From Octopus sinensis (lineage: Eukaryota), in contig NW_021832497.1 of the NCBI RefSeq assembly GCF_006345805.1, forward strand, positions 1 to 30,652: a stretch of DNA of 30,652 nt, written 5' to 3'. Made by a program: the position numbers and the translations under genes. Of this stretch, positions 6,725 to 25,480 are shown piece after piece (positions within the stretch are counted from its first letter, which is position 1; each line of letters begins with the position of its first letter). The notes beneath the pieces are model-generated. The model was given only the letters and a program-made list of their open reading frames with translations, made no database searches and was not told the DNA's origin.

Positions 6725-8255
6725 TATTTCAGTACCGGTTTCAGTCATTGAGACTTTTTCAATTATAAGTATCGAAAACAATTAAATTTTAGAAAAATTG
6801 AAAGAATATTTGCATAGTGTTCAAATGCAAGGGGCATTTTCCTTGTTTCTGCCTGTCTCTGTCTCTCTTTTTTACACCTGTATGTTCGAGGTCGTTGTGA
6901 ATTCTTGGCAGGGAAGAAAAAAAAGGGAAGAAGAAGAAGGAGGAGGAGCAGTAGGAAGAGGAGAAGAAGAATGCGGGAGTGCCATGGTAGTAGTAAGATG
7001 TTAAATGTTCAAGTGCTTCCCCGGACAAACCAGAATGAATATCCCCTACAATCTAGCAAAATGGATATGTACTATAGTTTCTAATGCAAACACTAGATAC
7101 ACGAATACATGAACTAAATGATACACTCATAACCAGGAACTACCCACCTTCACTAATTGACATATGCTTTCAACGTGCTCTTCAACTCAACATCCACGAA
7201 CTCAGACATCCCAAATTAAAGAAGGATTTACAAACAAAAGCCCTACCATACATCTCCACACACAACCCTTTTAACAATGAAGCCTTCGACACCATCCTTC
7301 AAAAGTTTCCCCTACTAAAAGTAGGACCACAGAATGAACTTAATCCTCCAAACAAACACCATCATAAAAAGCAAGAGACAACCCAAATCTATGAAAAGTC
7401 TCGTAACAGAAGCCCGGATACGTTCAACAACAACACAGATGCCGTCAGTAAAGAAATGTGAAAGACCCAACTAGGTGATATGCGTCAATATAATGGGAGA
7501 GATCAGAGTTCTTCTTCAAACAGGGACAACGTTTCACACGTAAATGTATGACTTTGCACAGATTCCACATCAATATTCCCCAAAATAGAAATATAACATC
7601 GACATTTGAGCCAATAAAACAAATCCAAGCTTCAGAATTTTTCCCTTCTACCAATTCGGGGACAATACAACCTGTAGCCAATGAATTAGTAAAGAGACTC
7701 TCTTAATTACAAAATACAGACCCCTTTTGAACGCGTCTACAACAAACGACATATCCACCACGGCCTTAGAATAACACAACCACACACGCAAATATTAAAA
7801 ATGATACACTCAAGAGATTCCCAATAATTCATTAAAAATCAGTCCCAATCACTGCTCTAATCCATAACAATTACTTTCAGGTCACTTAACCAATTAACAT
7901 CATACTACTATGATACCACCTACATCGCTCCCTTATTCTCCCTTCTCTTTCCCATTCTTCTTCTTCGTCTTCTCCCTCTCTGCCACCTCCTTCCTAATTT
8001 TACCAGTATTGCTGTTTAGAATAGCACCTACGCAATTTTTTTTAAACAATACATTCAAAAGCGATGTCTCAAGAATTTCATTACTACCACCATCCACAAC
8101 AAGTCACTTTCAGGGCACTTGACCATTTAACATCCTACTACTACCATGGCACTCCCTCATTCTTCTTCTCCTCCTCCTCCTTCTTCCCTGCCAAGAATTC
8201 ACAGCGACTTCGAACCCACATTCATATTTCGGCGTTTTCTGTATTTTTCAAAATT
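6725..8255 (+). mobile_element. 5'-truncated Penelope-like element (Neptune-type) with an inverted pLTR copy
   Basis: The plus strand at ~7038-7740 encodes NIPYNLAKWICTIVS, RIHELNDTLITRNYPPSLID, LPYISTHNP, a Cys linker (VKKCERPN..IC), FRIFPFYQF and ETLLITKYRPLLN, with frameshifts. It is flanked by the inverted repeat 6879-7016 / 8115-8220. Confidence 0.8.
6727..6770 (-). ncRNA. Minimal hammerhead-like motif, U3-A8 core variant
   Basis: Minus strand: TTGAAAA (6762-6756), AGTC-tcaat-GACT, GAAA (6742-6739), C-CG-GTA. Helix III is the palindrome ACCGGT. Helix I pairs poorly. Confidence 0.5.
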
Positions 8256-10130
8256 TAAATTTTCTCTATTCTAACGTTCTTGTAGAGAAATTGTTTCTTT
8301 GCATTGATAGATGGGGAAACCTGCAAATTTTGGTCGGCTATACTCTGCACACCACTTTATGTTCACTCAATGAAATTTGTACTTTGGGAATCGGATCCGT
8401 TTCTTATATATAGTGTGGGTTTCTTTAATGTCTTACTTGTCTGCCCTACATAGTTATGTCCACAACCTGAACAAGTTATAACATAAATTAGATTCTCGGA
8501 AGTTCAAGTGAAGTTGGTTTCCCTTGTGAATATCCTCTCTCGTTTTAATAGCAATTCCAAGCTTTCCCGTAGGTCGGGACATGTTCCACAGTTTGGAAGT
8601 CCACATTTTTTAGCTATTGATTTCGTGGTTGTTGTGTAAAGCTCCTCATTTGTCAAACGTCTTTACAGCGATTTCTGTTGTTTTTTGCATTTGATGAATT
8701 AATATGTTTTCAGAATGTTCATTTTTTGGATCACTAGCTGGTATAGATAGAATTTGTACAATAGTATTGTGTGTCTTATCGATTCTAGGGTTGTGAGTTG
8801 ATATATACGGTGGTACATTGAAATGAGATGTAGTGCTACGTTGTTTTGTTTTTTTTTAGTGTTTAATGCCTAATTTCTTGGCATGCTTAATCCCATCATC
8901 TATATATGAGTGTGAATATTGTCTCTTAATGTTTTTCTTAGGTGCTGTAGACGGAAGTCCCGAGTAGTTCAATCAGACACTATTATGCAAATCCTTATCA
9001 CCAAATTAAAGGGGGTATTTCCTTTGATGTATTTCCCCTGGCATGAGCTAAACAGAAGATATTGCGTCTAGTCCGTTGATATATGATAAACGTCATTTAC
9101 AATTTTGTTGTTGGTTGTTTTATCATAATATCTAAGAAAGAGAGCTGTTCTTTGCTATACTCCATTGTAAATTGAATGTTAGGGTATATATTATTTAGTA
9201 TTGATTTGTATCCCAAAAGTTTATCAATGGTCTCATTCCAAATCATAAAGCGGTCATCCAGATATCTTTTCCAGTTCTCTCGTATATAATGGTGAAATTG
9301 ATACCCATTTATTTCTAGTGATACTTCGTATATGGTGAATTCTAAATATCCCATTATTAGGTTTGCAAGAGCAGGGATTGCTTTCGATCCCATCGCAATT
9401 CGACATTTTTGACAATAGTAGGTGTCATCAAATTCGAAGTCATTTTTCTGAAGTATATATTTTAAAGTTTCATTAATAAAAACCTGGTTTATGCGTTCCG
9501 GAAGTTCTTCGGGCTATTTTCCAGTCGGAAGTTTATTGCATAGTCATGTGGGATATTGGTGTAAAGATTGATAACATCGAAGGAAACCGATAATGTCTGT
9601 TCGTTAGTTGTTTTGGTAGGTGCTCAAGCATATCTAGATCGTCTCTAATGAAACTTTTTATATATTTCAGCACTTCCTTTGTCTGCTTCTTTAATTGCCA
9701 GTTCTTTCTCGTTTTGCAGTTCAATTAGTATTTTCCATTCTAAATTGTTGAGTTTTGAATTATCTCATCGCTTATGGAAAGTATCTGGGAAATGTTGGCT
9801 ATGGTCGCAGATGTCATCTGGCGTTTTACTCCTACCCTTAAGTGGGAGATAATTGCTTCCATTTCTAACCAGTGATCCGTCCTCGTTGTTGTAGTCAGTT
9901 AGTGCTTCTAATAGTCGTTGCGTTGTTTTCTTCAAAATTCCGAAATATTGTCTTTAATTTCATTCTGTTTAGATCTTCGTGGTGTTTGTGTAAATTTTAA
10001 TCCTTTAGATAATATACAGATTTTTGTTGCAGAGAGAGATCACTTTGATACAATTAATACTTTGTGTTCCTCGTGTATGCTTTGTTCCAACGTGTGTCCG
10101 TCTCCCTCTACTCGGTCTAAAATTGTTTAG
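8255..10130 (-). mobile_element. Near-full-span but deleted and frameshifted Penelope-like element (Neptune-type RT plus GIY-YIG)
   Basis: Minus-strand motifs in order: LSKGLKFTQTP (~10000), IKEADKG (~9685), IRDDLDMLEHLP, AMGSKAIPALANLIMGYLE, WKRYLDD, LSFLD, Cys linker CGLPNCGTCP (~8590) and GIY-YIG NLIYVITCSGCGHNYVGQTS (~8435-8495). Confidence 0.92.
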
Positions 10131-10981
10131 CAAATGAACTCAGTTTCACTCAGGTTTAATACATCATGTTGTTAGTGACCGTAGATTAAAAGCCGTTAAC
10201 GAGGTACATATTATGTTTGGAAGTTATAGATTCAGACAGTGAGTAGTTAAGAAAAGTAAGAAAAATAAGAAAACTGAAGAGAATAAGACATGCAATTAAG
10301 TAAAACATCAGGTGTGTCAGTACCCAGGTATAGTTACTCCCATTCCCATCCCACTCCCACACTTTCCTTTTTTATATAAATACACACATTCGCACATAAT
10401 GCGGACTTACGCAGATACCATTAAACTGTTCAACCATTCTTGTAGCGGGACATAGAATGCAGTTTTCATTTTTGTCAAAATGTATGTAAATTTGAGGCCG
10501 GACAAAAATTATAAGTATGCACAAAAGCACAACGAATTGACGAATTCAGCAATGTGACACGTTTGCAATAATTGTGGAATGTTCTTTAAGAGAGTCTCCA
10601 GGTTTGAAAGCCAAATCCGTTCTCACTTGACGAATTAACACTGTATTTGTGCTTAAGATGGCCAAGCTTTCAGAAACATAAATTTATATTCATAAACATA
10701 CACAAATACTCAAGCACCATACACACACACTCAATTAACATGCAAATTATATATCGAAGATTATATCAATAAATTTCAGCTAATTAATGAGACCAATATA
10801 AGACCTGTCGTAGTAGAGGTATTTTGGATGTAGCAATAATTCGTTACGGGAATCACTCTTTGTATTGAAATAATGTTTATAGCATTCCCTTTGCAAAAGA
10901 TCGTATGTATGTGCACGTTGGAATTAATTGTGTGTGGGTAGGCAGTCTCACACACACACAAACACGCACAAACACACAATG

Positions 10982-11031
<50 letters not shown>

Positions 11032-11094
11032 TATGTGTGTATGTGTGTATATGTGTGTGCATTTGTATTTATGTAAATTTATCTATCAATTTGC

Positions 11095-11663
11095 TTATAT
11101 ATATATATATACATATATACATTCTCTCCTCATTCACTATGCATATATACATAAATATACAAATATATATATACATACAAGCATATATATAAATGCACAG
11201 GCATATACATAACTTATTGTATATATAAAATGTAGATGTAATTATGATATAGGACCCTGGGGAGATTCGTGAAGTGTCACAGTTCTCATGTTCCATTCTC
11301 TCAACGTAATAAGTTTAATCATCCATTAACAGATACCATCAAAGAAAAAAGTCACGAAACTCACTTCATTTAAATAGATGATATTCTATTCTCCCCCCCT
11401 CACTCTCTTTCTTCCTTTATATATATATGAGTACATATACTTACTGGTTTATATCTCTTTACATATGTATATATGTCTGTGTATATACGTATGTGTAGAT
11501 ATACGTCTATATGCATGCATACGCAAATCCTGACATATGGATAGTATGTGATTATTTCCCTGCCACTATATATATTCATATATATATATATATATATATA
11601 CGCTTGTGTGTGTGTATGCATGTATGTATATACATATATATAATGTATATTATATGTATATAT

Positions 11664-11730
<67 letters not shown>

Positions 11731-12053
11731 GATATATATATATATATATATATGTATGTACATACATACGTATATATATATCAGTGTTTACGTGTGTTCA
11801 GAATTTTACAGTTATGTGGAGTTATGCGCTCATAACAAAGCAATGTATAACACAAAACTGTTACTTATGCGCGTGATAATTAACGTTAATTTCGTATATC
11901 TTCTGGTAGAATTTGAAATAATACTTCCCCGTGTTGTATTTTAATGTCAGAATCATATCGAATTCTGTCCTTCTCTTTCACTAAACTATGTATATATATA
12001 TATATATATATATGTATATGCGTGTGCGTGTGTGAGTGTGTGTGTATGCATAT

Positions 12054-12085
<32 letters not shown>

Positions 12086-12631
12086 TACATTCTCTCCTCA
12101 TTCACTATGCATATATACATAAATATACAAATATATATATACATACAAGCATATATATAAATGCACAGGCATATACATAACTTATTGTATATATAAAATG
12201 TAGATGTAATTATGATATAGGACCCTGGGGAGATTCGTGAAGTGTCACAGTTCTCATGTTCCATTCTCTCAACGTAATAAGTTTAATCATCCATTAACAG
12301 ATACCATCAAAGAAAAAAGTCACGAAACTCACTTCATTTAAATAGATGATATTCTATTCTCCCCCCCTCACTCTCTTTCTTCCTTTATATATATATGAGT
12401 ACATATACTTACTGGTTTATATCTCTTTACATATGTATATATGTCTGTGTATATACGTATGTGTAATATAGTCTATATGCACATATACGCAAATCCTGAC
12501 ATATGGATAGTATGTGATTATTTCCCTGCCACTATATATATTCATATATATATATATATATATATATATACTTATATATGATGTTTGTGTGTGTGTATGC
12601 ATGTATGTATATACATATATATTATATGTAT

Positions 12632-12683
<52 letters not shown>

Positions 12684-12938
12684 ATATATATCTATATATA
12701 TATATGTATGTACATACATACGTATATATATATCAGTGTTTACGTGTGTTCAGAATTTTACAGTTATGTGGAGTTATGCGCTCATAACAAAGCAATGTAT
12801 ACACAAAACTGTTACTATGCGCGTGATAATTAACGTTAATTTCGTATATCTTCTGGTAGAATTTGAAATAATACTCTCCCCGTGTTGTATTTTAAATGTC
12901 AGAATCATATCGAATTCTGTCCTTCTCTTTCACTAAAC

Positions 12939-12973
<35 letters not shown>

Positions 12974-13011
12974 TATATGTATATGCGTGTGCGTGTGTGA
13001 GTGTGTGTGTA

Positions 13012-13045
<34 letters not shown>
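11095..13045. repeat. Tandem duplication, ~970-bp unit, 2 copies
   Basis: ATTCTCTCCTCATTCAC occurs at 11121 and 12089 (offset 968). The unique parts are near-identical; differences are mostly microsatellite length and small indels. Confidence 0.92.
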
Positions 13046-13050
<5 letters not shown>

Positions 13051-13117
13051 ATACATAGGTATGTATGTATATATATTATAATATATATATATATATAATT
13101 GTGGGTGTATGTATGTA

Positions 13118-13870
13118 CAAGGGTTGGACAAAATATGGAAACACCTAGTATCATATCATCATAATTTTGAAATATCTACAAAACAAGTTTATTTTTATAT
13201 TTTTATGTTTTGAATTATTATTAGTGTTACTTAATAAGTTTTGCTAAAATTGCTGCTTCTTTTCACAAAAAAAGGCAATTAAAATTATTCAGTTGACAGA
13301 CCTATCGGACTGTGAAACGGCGTTAGGAAAACAGCCGAAATGTTTGATCTATCTAGAAGTACTGCCTTGAAATTATTGACATCCTTTGAGAAAGAGGCAA
13401 AAACTTCCTCGTCGAAAATCTCCGGATGAAAATCAAAACTTTCAGATAGGGACCGTCGGACTCTTACGCAAATTGTTAGAAAGGATCACAAAAGTACAGC
13501 TCCCCAAATTACTGCAGAACTTAATGACCACCTCCAGAACCCAGTTTCCACGAAAATATTCGCCGGGAGCTGCACCAGGCTGAATTTCACGGGAGGGCTG
13601 CAATAAGAATAACATTACTTTCAAAAAACAAACTTTGCAAAGCGTTTAGAGTAGAGTAAAAACTTATAGAATTGGTCCCTAAAGCAGTGGAGGAATGTTG
13701 TTTTCTCTGACGAATCATCCTTTATTAACGGCGTATGCGTCTGGAGGCAGCCAAAGAAAGCATTTGGACAAGACTAACTTCTTCCAGCTGTTAAATATGG
13801 AGGCGGATCCGTGATGAGCTGCGGTGCTGCATATGGAAAATCCGCGTGCAGAATTAATAGTCAAGATTAT
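13118..13870 (+). mobile_element. Tc1-like transposon, 5' part (decayed)
   Basis: TA then TIR CAAGGGTTGGACAAAATATGGAAACACCT. Peptides: DRRTLTQIVRKDHKSTAPQITAELNDHLQNPVS, WRNVVFSDES and VKYGGGSVM. Confidence 0.88.
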
Positions 13871-14163
13871 ATATATATATATATTTCTAAAGAGACAGAT
13901 TGTTAGATTGATGCATGGATATATAAGTAAAGAGGTAAGGATAAGCTTAGATATATACATAACACTACGACAGATATGCTTATATAGATACATATGTATG
14001 TGTGTGTGGTGGGTGGGGGTGAGAAGTTTTAAGAACGTTATTTTCATGTAAAGATATATTTTGTTATTTATCATTGCATAAGATATATACAAGATTACCG
14101 CAATGAATAATGGCAATCGCACAAAATAAAACTTGTCTATTGAACAACTTCAGCAGATACAAG

Positions 14164-14199
<36 letters not shown>

Positions 14200-14246
14200 G
14201 ATATGTATATATATATATATATATATGTACATACATATATATATAT

Positions 14247-14500
14247 AAATAAATGAAAGAATGGAGTTGAACGACGATTTAACAAAATTCCTTTATTCTC
14301 GACATATGTTTCAAAGGCTGCATATTCCTAATTTCGAAGGAATCAGGGGTGCACTATGCCGCCTTCTCATCAGGAAAAACAAGGAACTTATGTCTCTGCC
14401 CTTGGCATGTAGCTTCAATCGTGTTTTTCTGACGTGAATTTGCTACCCAGGTATCGGTTAACCGAATTATCCATACTAAGATAATTTATTCAACTACTTA
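14247..14500 (-). mobile_element. Short HHR-bearing insert (PLE pLTR/retrozyme fragment) within (TA)n
   Basis: A ~254-bp unique block with TA runs on both sides, containing the HHR at 14286-14389. Confidence 0.6.
14286..14389 (-). ncRNA. Type I hammerhead ribozyme with extended helix II
   Basis: Minus strand: CTGATGA (14373-14367); helix II GAAGGCGGCATA/TATGCAGCCTTT enclosing the hairpin ATTCCT..AGGAAT; GAAA (14312-14309); palindromic helix III ACATATGT; GTC triplet (14303-14301). Helix I is TTTTC/GAGAA plus distal AAGTTCCTT/AAGGAATTT. Confidence 0.85.
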
Positions 14501-14619
14501 ATATATATATATATATATATATGTATGTATCTTTTATATATACATGTATATATATATATATACATATATATATTATACACATATGCACACACACACACAC
14601 ACACACATTATATATATAT

Positions 14620-14661
<42 letters not shown>

Positions 14662-14671
14662 TATATATATA

Positions 14672-16627: not shown

Positions 16628-17221
16628 TGTTGAATATATTATATAGTCTGTGACTATTTCTATTTTCTCACTTGACCGCTGGTTGCAGAAAATTTTTCTT
16701 GAATTTTTCTTGAATTTTTTGCTACCCTATATTGATAAATTAATAATTTTTGACTAATTCTGAAATTGTATCAGCAGTTTATATTTGCTGCTGAGTAGTT
16801 GGCGGGGTTACGTTGGATTTCGAAAAATTAGGATATATACACTCGGGGCTTCAGTGGTGTCGCCTCGTGGGTATGTGTTCTCCTTTTCTTTTGGTGATCT
16901 TGCTGATGAAACAAGCCAATCGCAAACGGATTTAATTTAATTTAATTATGTTCGATTGCGTAAAAATTGTTGAAACCTTGCAGGGTACAAAGTTGAAAGG
17001 GATAAATGTTTTTATTTCTCCTTTAGCTTTCAGAATTACTACTATTTTTGCGGTTTGAGTTTGGCTGCTCTTTCAAGTGAGTTGAAGACCTGTTAGGGTC
17101 ATTCCTAATACTTTGTTGAATATATTATATAGTCTGTGACTATTTCTATTTTCTCACTTGACCGCTGGTTGCAGAAAATTTTTCTTGAATTTTTCTTGTA
17201 TTTTTTTGCTACCCTATATTG

Positions 17222-17227
<6 letters not shown>
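16628..17227 (+). mobile_element. Retrozyme-like / pLTR partial-tandem element (486-bp unit plus 113-bp terminal direct repeat) with an HHR
   Basis: 16628-16740 is near-identical to 17114-17227 (about one difference). No ORF. Flanked by (TG)n and a long (TA)n. Confidence 0.75.
16881..17002 (+). ncRNA. Type I hammerhead ribozyme with extended helix II
   Basis: CTGATGA (16903-16909); helix II AACAA/TTGTT with inner CAATCG/CGATTG; GAAA (16972-16975); helix III ACCT-TGCA-GGGT; GTA triplet (16985-16987). Helix I is TTG/CAA plus distal TCCTTTTC/GAAAGGGA. Confidence 0.85.
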
Positions 17228-18034: not shown

Positions 18035-18452
18035 CTTCTTATTTCTTTATTGTCCACAGGAGCTAAACATAGAGGGGACACACAAAGACAGACAGAGGGA
18101 TTAAGTGGATTACATCGACCCCAGTACGGAACTAGTACTTAATTTATCGACCCCGAAAGGATGAAAGGCAAAGTCAACCTCGGCGGAATTTGAACTCAGA
18201 AAGTAACGGCAGACGAAATACCTATTTCTTTACTACTCACAAGGGGCTAAACACAGAGGGGACGACAAGGACAGACAAACGGATTAAGTCGATTACATCG
18301 AACCCAGTGCGTAACTGGTACTTAATTTATCGACCCCGAAAGGATGAAATGCAAAGTCGACCTCGGCGGAATTTGAACTCAGAACGCAGCGGCGGACGAA
18401 ATACCACAAAGCATTTCGGCCGGCGTGCTAACCTTTCTGCCAGCTTACCGCC
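18035..18452 (-). mobile_element. Tandem SINE dimer (full copy plus 5'-truncated copy), same family as 15814-16040
   Basis: GATTACATCG..CCCAGT..ATTTATCGACCCCGAAAGGATGAAA..CCTCGGCGGAATTTGAACTCAGAA occurs twice, ~183 bp apart. Only the right copy has the head. Confidence 0.88.
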
Positions 18453-18678: not shown

Positions 18679-18876
18679 ACATATACTTATATACACACAT
18701 ATGTATACACTTCTCTATATAAAGAGATACAAATATACATGTTTACACACCCATACTTATGTTGATATGCCTATATTCATATAGGCATATAAACATAAGT
18801 ATGGGTGTGTACACATGTATATTTGTATCTCTTTATATGGAGAAGTGATTACATATGTGTGTACACAAGTATATAT
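18679..18876. repeat. Near-perfect palindrome (98-bp arms, 2-nt spacer)
   Basis: Centre CTATAT-TC-ATATAG at 18771-18784. About 7 mismatches counted by eye. Confidence 0.95.
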
Positions 18877-24340: not shown

Positions 24341-25480
24341 TTGGGTGGTCTGGAAAATTCGTGCCGATTTTTAAAGGAAATACTTGCCATTATATTTTTA
24401 ATCAACCAAATATGAACCATTTTGTTGCACAATGCGTCTCCATCTTTCCTTTAACTTGAAAATACCCTCTTCCCAGAACTGAGGTGGTTTCATAGCAACG
24501 AATTCATCAATGTATCTTTTTACGTCATCCAAAGAATTGAAATTTTTAGCATTAAGACTATTCTGCAGAGACCTGAATAAGAAGAAATCCAAAGGAGCAA
24601 TGCCTGGTGAATATGGCGGGTAGGGTAACACATCCCAGCCGACCTGCAGCAATTTTCTACTGGTTCCCGAAGAAACGTGCGGTCTTGCATTATCATGTTG
24701 AAAAACAACACCCTTCCCGTTGGACAATTCTGGACGTTCCTCTTGAATTGCTGCTTTTAACTCGTCCAGTTATGTGCAGTATTTCTCATAATTAATTGGT
24801 TGGTTATTTGGGAGAAGCGTATAGTAATGAATTCCTTTCCAGTCTCACCAGACACAAAGCAAGATTTTTTAGGGTGAAGACCCGATTTTGGGGTGGCTAA
24901 GAGTGGCTCATGTCACTTACTCCAAGATCGCTTTCTCTGAACATTTCGGTACATAATCCATTTCTCGTTACCTGTCACAATTTGCTTTAAAAAAAGCACG
25001 TTTTCATTCCGTTTATAAAGGGAAACACAGATGGAAATGCGATCCAAAAGGTTTCTCTCAACTCATGTGATACCCAAACATCGTAGCCATTTGAATACCC
25101 AAGCTTTACCAGGTGCTCATGAATGACGGAATCCGATAGGATGAGGCTCTCTGCCAATTCTCAGGTTGTTCAATGTGGGTTATTCTCAATTAATGACTTG
25201 ATTTGGTCCTCATCTGTAGTGAATGGTCTGCCTGATTACTCTTTATCAATAAGGCTGCAATCTCCAGCTTGGAACCTTGCGAACCACTTCCTTACAGTTC
25301 TTTCGGATAAAGAAACATCACCGTTGACTGCGGGTATTTCTTTGGTTGTTTGTGATGCATTTTTCCACTGTGCACTAAATGGAGATATAGTCCAATCCTA
25401 TTTTATGGACTTCACCATGTTCTAAAATAAGTCGAAAGGTAAGCTATTATAAATCGGCACGAACTTTCTGAACAACCCAA
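24341..25480 (-). mobile_element. Mariner (DD34D) element with both TIRs and a pseudogenised transposase
   Basis: TIRs at 24341-24370 and 25451-25480, with TA on the left and CA on the right. Motifs: WVSHEL, IVTGNEKW, HDNARPH and YSPGIAPLD, with 34 residues between the last two D. Stops and frameshifts throughout. Confidence 0.95.

Follow-up and report, generated by a model that had tools for sequence, protein, structure and literature searches.

The hammerhead ribozyme (HHR) motif on the minus strand of the insert at ~14243–14501 is probably the 3′ UTR/pLTR ribozyme of a Hydra-like Penelope retrotransposon, predicted to act as a double hammerhead in cis where copies stand in tandem and likely idle at the locus described here, the insert itself being a truncated, two-armed copy of that element. 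By the window we mean the whole 30.6-kb stretch of DNA that was analyzed (30,652 nt), and G000 is our label for its own genome.

Structure of the Hammerhead at the Locus

On the minus strand, the core reads CUGAUGA at 14373–14367 and GAAA at 14312–14309, and all positions of the type I hammerhead core (C3–A9, G12–A15.1, U16.1, and H17) are present. Helix I is bipartite (5 bp, a 2 × 2 loop, and 9 bp); helix II joins 14366–14355 to 14324–14313 with 11 of 12 positions paired (the mismatch is G·A at 14360/14319) and is closed by G10.1·U11.1; and helix III is built from the palindrome ACAUAUGU at 14309–14302. C17 is 14301, and hammerhead consensus places the predicted cut between 14301 and 14300 on the same strand, the position that a previous sequence-only reading had also arrived at. 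That reading had described the canonical CUGAUGA/GAAA/GUC core, the two-part helix I, and the 11 of 12 pairs in helix II, all of which we recover, but had omitted a 30-nt apical segment, itself bearing a hairpin, that sits on helix II within a domain II of 54 nt in this copy. The parts of the motif, with the evidence by which each was placed, are:

14374–14389, minus strand: helix I, 5′ strand (outer 14389–14381, inner 14378–14374); motif reading, folding, covariation
14367–14373, minus strand: core CUGAUGA (C3–A9); CUGA.GA unchanged in all 34 rows of alignment A3
14313–14366, minus strand: domain II, 54 nt, with a 12-position helix, internal loop, and apical hairpin; folding, alignment
14354, 14344, and 14313 (U11.1), minus strand: private changes in domain II; comparison with family copies
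14309–14312, minus strand: core GAAA (G12–A15.1); motif reading, alignment
14302–14309, minus strand: helix III palindrome ACAUAUGU, 2 bp plus tetraloop in the monomer, 8-bp duplex in the double hammerhead; motif reading, computed folds
14300–14301, minus strand: predicted cleavage site after C17 (GUC); from hammerhead consensus
14285–14300, minus strand: helix I, 3′ strand, overlapping a hexamer that reads AAUAAA here and AGUAAA in subfamilies b and c

Three helices with helix I open make up the type I layout, and covariation backs helices I and II. The folding z score is −2.98, with none of 200 shuffles equally stable; among 300 locally shuffled windows, none held an equally good motif and a single one held any match in which helices I and II each reached 4 bp. 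Judged by its sequence, the window motif is a genuine hammerhead motif. The comparison with minimal hammerheads of Penelope-like elements (PLEs) made in the sequence-only reading is right as to the PLE-type, type I architecture but not as to minimality: the min-HHR features (no helix III/loop 3, an extra base between A9 and G10.1, a short helix I) are missing from the window hammerhead, in which a helix III is present, no base is added ahead of helix II, the bipartite helix I is long, and the branched domain II far exceeds that of min-HHRs in length (PMC4209133).

A search of the insert against Rfam gave no hammerhead match even at E ≤ 10, five family loci gave none at the gathering threshold, and the 150 of 218 rows listed for the window held microsatellite-driven miRNA matches only. 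We treat an Rfam match as a test of detection rather than as a structural criterion, and the miss is likely due to the long domain II. A pseudoknot between loop II (UUAUU) and helix I (AAUAA) was considered, but the apical hairpin and the poly(A)-like hexamer account for these bases.

The Insert Is a Two-Armed Retrotransposon Fragment

The insert is flanked on both sides by TA runs, as the sequence-only reading had it, and consists of two pieces of one element placed back to back with a 2-nt overlap:

14201–14251, no strand: (TA)n-type target repeat, left flank; repeat analysis
14243–14394, minus strand: sense arm, the terminal part of the element's 3′ UTR/pLTR, hammerhead included, which extends to fixed end site 1 (~58 nt past the cut); 98% identical to reference positions 52–203 of the family copy L012
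14393–14501, plus strand: inverted arm or "tail," the element's 5′ UTR, running to fixed end site 2; 96% identical to L012 reference positions 241–349
14501–14671, no strand: (TA)n-type target repeat, right flank; repeat analysis

The insert had been called an orphan, a description that did not survive a search of its own genome: 89 matches were obtained from the best 40 of 2,799 candidates, and its halves are 96%–98% identical to L012. (Our homology searches scored the best 40 or 150 candidates only, which favors young copies.) The segment that forms the inverted arm precedes the ATG in L081, a near-full copy, and follows the HHR in tandem copies. Ten other copies (L002–L011) have the same two-arm shape and size, each with a different junction; because the junctions differ, these are separate events, the two-arm shape recurring rather than being inherited. 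As its matches indicate, the insert is a 5′-truncated, two-armed copy of a Penelope-like retrotransposon present in many copies in the genome. One further locus, L031 (G000:C4:17372227-17373862), holds three repeats of the whole two-armed inverted unit, spaced ~550–570 bp apart.

The Parent Element and Its Protein

Walking upstream from family copies, we found the parent, a Penelope-like element, in near-full form in L081 (~3.5 kb, 5′ UTR-ORF-3′ UTR-HHR). Its ORF, broken near the start, encodes a reverse transcriptase (RT) together with a GIY-YIG endonuclease (EN) at the C terminus, the single ORF with PLE-type RT and GIY-YIG of EN+ Penelope-like elements; the RT motifs are present, the GIY-YIG match is weak (E 0.0035–0.029, below the Pfam cut-off), and Pfam profiles did not name the RT. 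There are 71 database protein homologs, including Octopus P0047, which, along with TA-rich repeats and SINE-like pieces, gives the genome an octopus-like appearance. An RT search of the own genome gave 150 matches at 77%–100% identity (the best 150 of 12,642 candidates), and 60 of these were examined with their flanks. In sister copies (L168–L170), open frames of 895–906 aa lie between two same-strand HHRs 3.62–3.67 kb apart, and the element unit measures 3.4–3.7 kb. These three loci (G000:C4:144779700-, C10818:20200-, and C7:70355700-, respectively) carry intact ORFs of ~900 aa and twin pLTR hammerheads. Partial tandems of the pLTR, inverted truncated arms, a one-sided tail, and an HHR in the pLTR are all present in the family.

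A CxxC..E..N..CxH pattern in a C-terminal EN lacking CCHH was seen in 46 of 58 EN-bearing frames, and the family has the motifs SDKTR (DKT) and RIRWL, the latter a one-residue variant of RWK. The CxCX5C linker ahead of the EN was found in none of the 58 own-genome EN-bearing frames (80 loci examined), an Asn/Ser-rich stretch taking its place, and CxCX5-7C is present in 47 of 48 EN-bearing database homologs, including the nearest one. On a midpoint-rooted RT tree built with 41 database homologs only, the nearest relative is P0002, which keeps the linker. Since the linker is missing in the family, we file the element as a Hydra-like variant and not as a plain member of the Hydra clade. An assignment to the Naiads, suggested by the motifs, was rejected, as Naiads have an N-terminal EN, and Hydra-1_Obim was rejected by eye, its HHR and protein being different (Obim keeps CSCR..C). 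Fragments of another PLE family, with the CxC motif kept in the EN linker, lie at L089 7053–5569 (minus strand), beside two family copies.

Conservation of the Ribozyme across Subfamilies

DNA searches delineated three subfamilies with 64, 31, and 26 long copies that lie 2.8%, 1.5%, and 5.3%, respectively, from their majority sequences. In 49 chosen rows from the three, the core is kept, 95.4% of cells are paired, and 6 of 23 pairs are changed on both sides. In 34 chosen rows from the wider lineage, 86.5% of cells are paired (38%–47% in slid controls), and 11 of 27 pairs are changed on both sides, counts that overstate independent events because the rows are related. The paired cells and score of the 34-row set were matched by none of 500 shuffles; its number of pairs changed on both sides was no better than in shuffles (118 of 500 reached it). 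Covariation is seen in helices I and II, and in helix III the two pairs formed by the monomer are invariant. Domain II measures 53–59 nt throughout the family, with a 12-position helix, an internal loop, and a branching apical hairpin, and the unpaired U39 and G40 of its loop are conserved. Over 25% RT divergence, variation in the catalytic bases is confined to positions at which hammerheads tolerate it (N7 = U/A/C; N17 = C/A), which points to selection on catalysis. Homologous copies that fail to conserve the core, the outcome the sequence-only reading had named as contrary to its view, are not what we found, the core being conserved across subfamilies, and we conclude from the alignments that selection acts on the ribozyme within the family. 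In L081 (1011–1112, minus strand) and L211, helix III is 2 nt shorter and still a palindrome (ACAUGU).

The G·U pair that closes helix II had been taken as possibly a decayed G-C. Position 11.1 in subfamily a is C in 81 of 86 copies and U in three, including the window copy (the other two are unparsed), and U11.1 in the window copy is, by this comparison, private decay of a G-C pair. The change is, however, not necessarily damaging: of 62 RT-linked loci, 51 have a parsable HHR, and 14 of these 51 show G·U at 10.1–11.1; the 14 form a continuous run of lineages on the tree and include L170, with an intact ORF and U in both pLTRs, so that G·U is tolerated and, in sister lineages, fixed.

Helix III and Predicted Dimer Folding

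Among the 51 parsed RT-linked loci, helix III is ACAUAUGU in 16, ACAUGUGU in 10, and ACACGUGU in 20, the remaining five being deleted or mis-parsed. The palindrome centers are ordered UA, UG, CG along the midpoint-rooted RT tree (the direction is not fixed), and the UG center is also found in 5 of 33 subfamily b copies. The CG-type clade is the youngest, with near-identical RT sequences, and looks recently active. Helix III is fully self-complementary (8/8) in 34 of 34 rows; among random tetraloops, 36 of 256 would qualify. Being neighbors, the two middle bases are unable to pair within one molecule, and the fact that their complementarity is nevertheless kept points to a double hammerhead. 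We regard the UA/UG/CG series as moderate evidence for an intermolecular helix III, given that it comprises only two substitutions on one lineage and that UG and CG are linked by CpG mutation.

In computed folds, none of the 34 rows gives the active monomer a share above 1.6%; a double hammerhead is more favorable than two monomers in 28 rows but ranks first among the dimers in only six. For the window copy, a rival dimer, pairing via the loop with a private change, is more stable than the double hammerhead by 4.5 kcal/mol, and the active monomer makes up ~0.2% of the ensemble, the core pairing with the palindrome. A second same-strand copy in cis is present in the tandem family copies L072 and L168–L170. 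PLE hammerheads are reported to work as dimers (Lunse et al., 2016, as cited in PMC6765202). The suggestion in the sequence-only reading that the palindrome implies dimer-dependent cleavage is thus upheld in that the palindrome is a sign of dimer folding, but not as a strict dependence, since in other animals motifs with a helix III of 2 bp plus tetraloop cleave as monomers (in the available text of PMC7229834).

These monomeric motifs lend some weight to a different explanation, in which the ribozyme of the same element would cleave efficiently in monomeric form, its fold stabilized by docking of the long domain II onto the internal loop of helix I, and the window copy would cut any minus-strand read-through RNA. 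Its helix III can be likened to that of invertebrate retrozyme HHRs, which cleave efficiently, and the axolotl Amex2 motif, with the same helix III type, reached 22% as a monomer (both PMC7229834); the conserved U39 and G40 are also in its favor, as are the tolerance of G·U at 10.1–11.1 in sister lineages, the reported occurrence of U·U in natural HHRs, and the fact that nearest-neighbor folding disregards tertiary contacts. The loop of a monomer need not stay self-complementary, yet it does so in every one of the 34 rows; this, together with the computed scarcity of the active monomer, in which the core is engaged by the palindrome, and the absence of a known transcript across the locus, makes the explanation unlikely in our judgment.

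Fixed Ends and How Copies May Form

Family copies end at two sites in 114 of 116 cases, 59 of them ~58 nt and 55 of them ~206 nt past the cut site; the two sites are thus ~148 nt apart, and TA repeats follow 107 of the 114 fixed-site ends. Of 44 inverted pairs, 42 combine the two end types and none has two alike, and the combination is also seen in 10 of 10 inverted pairs in loci picked only by the upstream 3′ UTR. Downstream of sister-copy HHRs, a TA run lies 57–68 or 201–224 nt past the cut in 37 of 40, the other three being upstream pLTRs. The cut site itself was rejected as a copy boundary: a single end of 116 lies there, and no aligned start falls on the first base after the cut.

That copies pass over the cut site would also be expected if the fold were kept as an RNA for RT protein binding or packaging, or for placing the poly(A) signal and the RT starts, with cutting incidental or lost; all examined copies cross it (with the one end in 116 at the cut), HHR mutants of an anole PLE still insert in vitro (PMC11167929), and the AAUAAA/AGUAAA hexamer overlaps helix I. 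We nevertheless consider this a very improbable account, given that over 25% RT divergence the catalytic bases vary only as hammerheads allow.

From the parent element, the conserved structure, the end geometry, and the (TA)n flanks, we infer the following course for a cutting ribozyme. An intact tandem (pLTR-ORF-pLTR) would give one transcript with two same-sense HHRs, the palindromes of which would pair into an 8-bp helix III; the double hammerhead would cut both sites, yielding a unit RNA that starts in the 5′ UTR; the element's RT/GIY-YIG protein would introduce nicks in the two strands of a (TA)n target; each strand would have its cDNA started at one of the two fixed RNA sites (~58 and ~206 nt past the cut); and both cDNAs would stop early and join by microhomology, producing the two-armed shape seen in the window. 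Because copies cross the cut site intact and the cut is upstream of either start site, the template would be either an uncut multimeric RNA or a re-ligated circle, which the sequences analyzed here do not separate. RNA circles have been proposed for PLE hammerheads (PMC4209133), and an uncut RNA template is the in vitro result for the anole PLE, where the HHR cleaved only with the help of protein and insertion in vitro could do without that cleavage (PMC11167929).

A more far-reaching version, which we put forward only tentatively and think rather doubtful as a whole, is that this is a Hydra-derived branch with (TA)n targeting in spite of having lost the zinc linker to which such targeting is attributed, in which the long, branched HHR is an obligate cis-dimer switch: pLTR ribozymes 3.6 kb apart would pair, cut, and circularize the unit RNA, and the circle would be copied from two fixed starts, one per strand. 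If true, it would explain both the tandems and the strictly asymmetric two-armed insertions, and the near-identical intact sister copies would represent a live system.

Activity at the Window Locus

A covariance-type model run on the 30.6-kb window found a single family copy and no same-strand partner, and the window copy has no ORF. It differs from family copies by about 2%–4% and has three private changes; taken together, these observations make it most likely neutral debris, and it is probably inert. The proposal that it could cleave any minus-strand transcript finds little support, given the ~0.2% active monomer and the missing same-strand partner; for a passing transcript to be cut, family RNA in trans or help from a protein would be needed, and efficient cutting at this locus is improbable. 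Contigs from runs that we guessed to be RNA cover the L081 element in pieces and were not used as evidence of expression, ends, or copy number; three guessed-RNA runs cover the window repeats but not the unique flank at 13584–14222, which a fourth covers, and these too were set aside as evidence of expression.

The idea that the 250-bp insert is a non-autonomous family in its own right (retrozyme or MITE-like) or a host-adopted ribozyme can be dismissed almost entirely and is already largely refuted, for although L002–L011 share the two-arm shape and size and about four-fifths of the 89 insert matches are short end pieces, the junctions all differ, the sequence is continuous with an RT/EN ORF, a short tandem unit is absent, and the window copy, about 2%–4% from family copies, is decayed.

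Comparison with Known Systems

As described in the available parts of PMC8557442, Hydra-clade elements share with our family a single ORF with RT followed by GIY-YIG, the DKT and RW motifs, the lack of CCHH, and CxxC/CxH around a conserved E and N; a type I HHR with a palindromic helix III in the 3′ UTR; (TA)n targets; and partial tandems, inverted 5′-truncated arms, and a tail at one end. The family differs from them in lacking the CxCX5C linker, in having RWL for RWK, in its unit (3.5–3.7 kb versus "generally <3 kb"), in its domain II (53–59 nt versus stems of 3–7 bp and loops of 3–10 nt in the 26 Hydra rows of File S2), and in its tail (~148 nt versus 30–40 bp) (PMC8557442). With the dimer-working PLE hammerheads of PMC4209133 it has in common the type I layout, the short palindromic helix III, and a conserved G10.1-C11.1, and there, too, most copies are single, from truncated PLEs, and inverted pairs lie 100–700 bp apart. 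The Poseidon element of Anolis, PAc, likewise has AT-rich targets, extension of both strands, two internal RT starts that define the tail, and an intact HHR in the template; PAc, however, belongs to another clade and starts at the beginning of the ORF, whereas our family starts in the 5′ UTR at sites ~148 nt apart, strictly one per arm (PMC11167929). Metazoan non-LTR retrozymes (PMC7229834; bioRxiv 10.64898/2026.07.22.740005) resemble the family in carrying a type I HHR in a dispersed repeat, and a link to PLE pLTRs has been proposed for them; unlike in these retrozymes, a short ORF-less tandem unit with one HHR each is absent here, the insert being the end of an autonomous-type element that codes for RT/EN. 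In Octopus vulgaris, recently active Penelope-like families have been reported, in an account whose available text does not mention ribozymes (PMC13282606).

Earlier publications already cover HHRs in Hydra PLEs, the palindromes of these ribozymes, TA targeting, and truncated arms in inverted orientation. A full-text literature search returned no description of the family, the long domain II, or the loss of the linker, although Lunse et al. (2016) may cover long helix II or palindrome covariation and Repbase/Dfam may list the family under an automatic name. The window locus itself, one decayed copy among many, is of little import. Of wider interest are the persistence of (TA)n targeting without CxCX5C, against the association suggested in PMC8557442, and the rule of one end of each type, which constrains how PLEs prime on both strands. 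The 53–59-nt domain II lies outside the 7–17-nt core spacer of the core search in PMC8557442 and is missed by Rfam, and PLE ribozymes are therefore probably undercounted. With intact ORFs flanked by twin ribozymes, the young copies bring the role of PLE hammerheads within reach of testing.

Other Features in the Window and Nearby Loci

The only other hammerhead-like motif in the window, at 16903–16987 (plus strand), lies on the opposite strand and belongs to another family with another palindrome; it is type I-like, with CUGAUGA, a long two-tier helix II, a 12-nt near-palindromic helix III, a GUA site, and a z score of −3.05. It is part of a ~486-nt unit at ~16628–17225, for which we obtained 89 matches from the best 40 of 1,880 candidates, in tandem and inverted arrays; by its layout, the unit appears retrozyme-like, again with a long domain II. 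In L185, an unrelated hammerhead-like motif ~400 bp past the family HHR has the palindrome ACAGCUGU and a 57-nt domain II. Frames at 9097–9513 (minus strand) and 7078–7461 (plus strand) presumably derive from the RT of another PLE clade, which they resemble as fragments, and have no Pfam match at E ≤ 0.01; the frame at 24398–24769 (minus strand), likewise with no Pfam match, and DNA at ~13500–13860 look like what we take to be remnants of mariner/Tc1 transposases. The window further contains a near-perfect inverted repeat of ~110 bp (18722–18833) that draws sub-threshold miRNA matches, a two-copy tandem of 183 bp (18040–18405), and a local duplication of ~968 bp (10949–13097) with repeated frames at 11069 and 11986.
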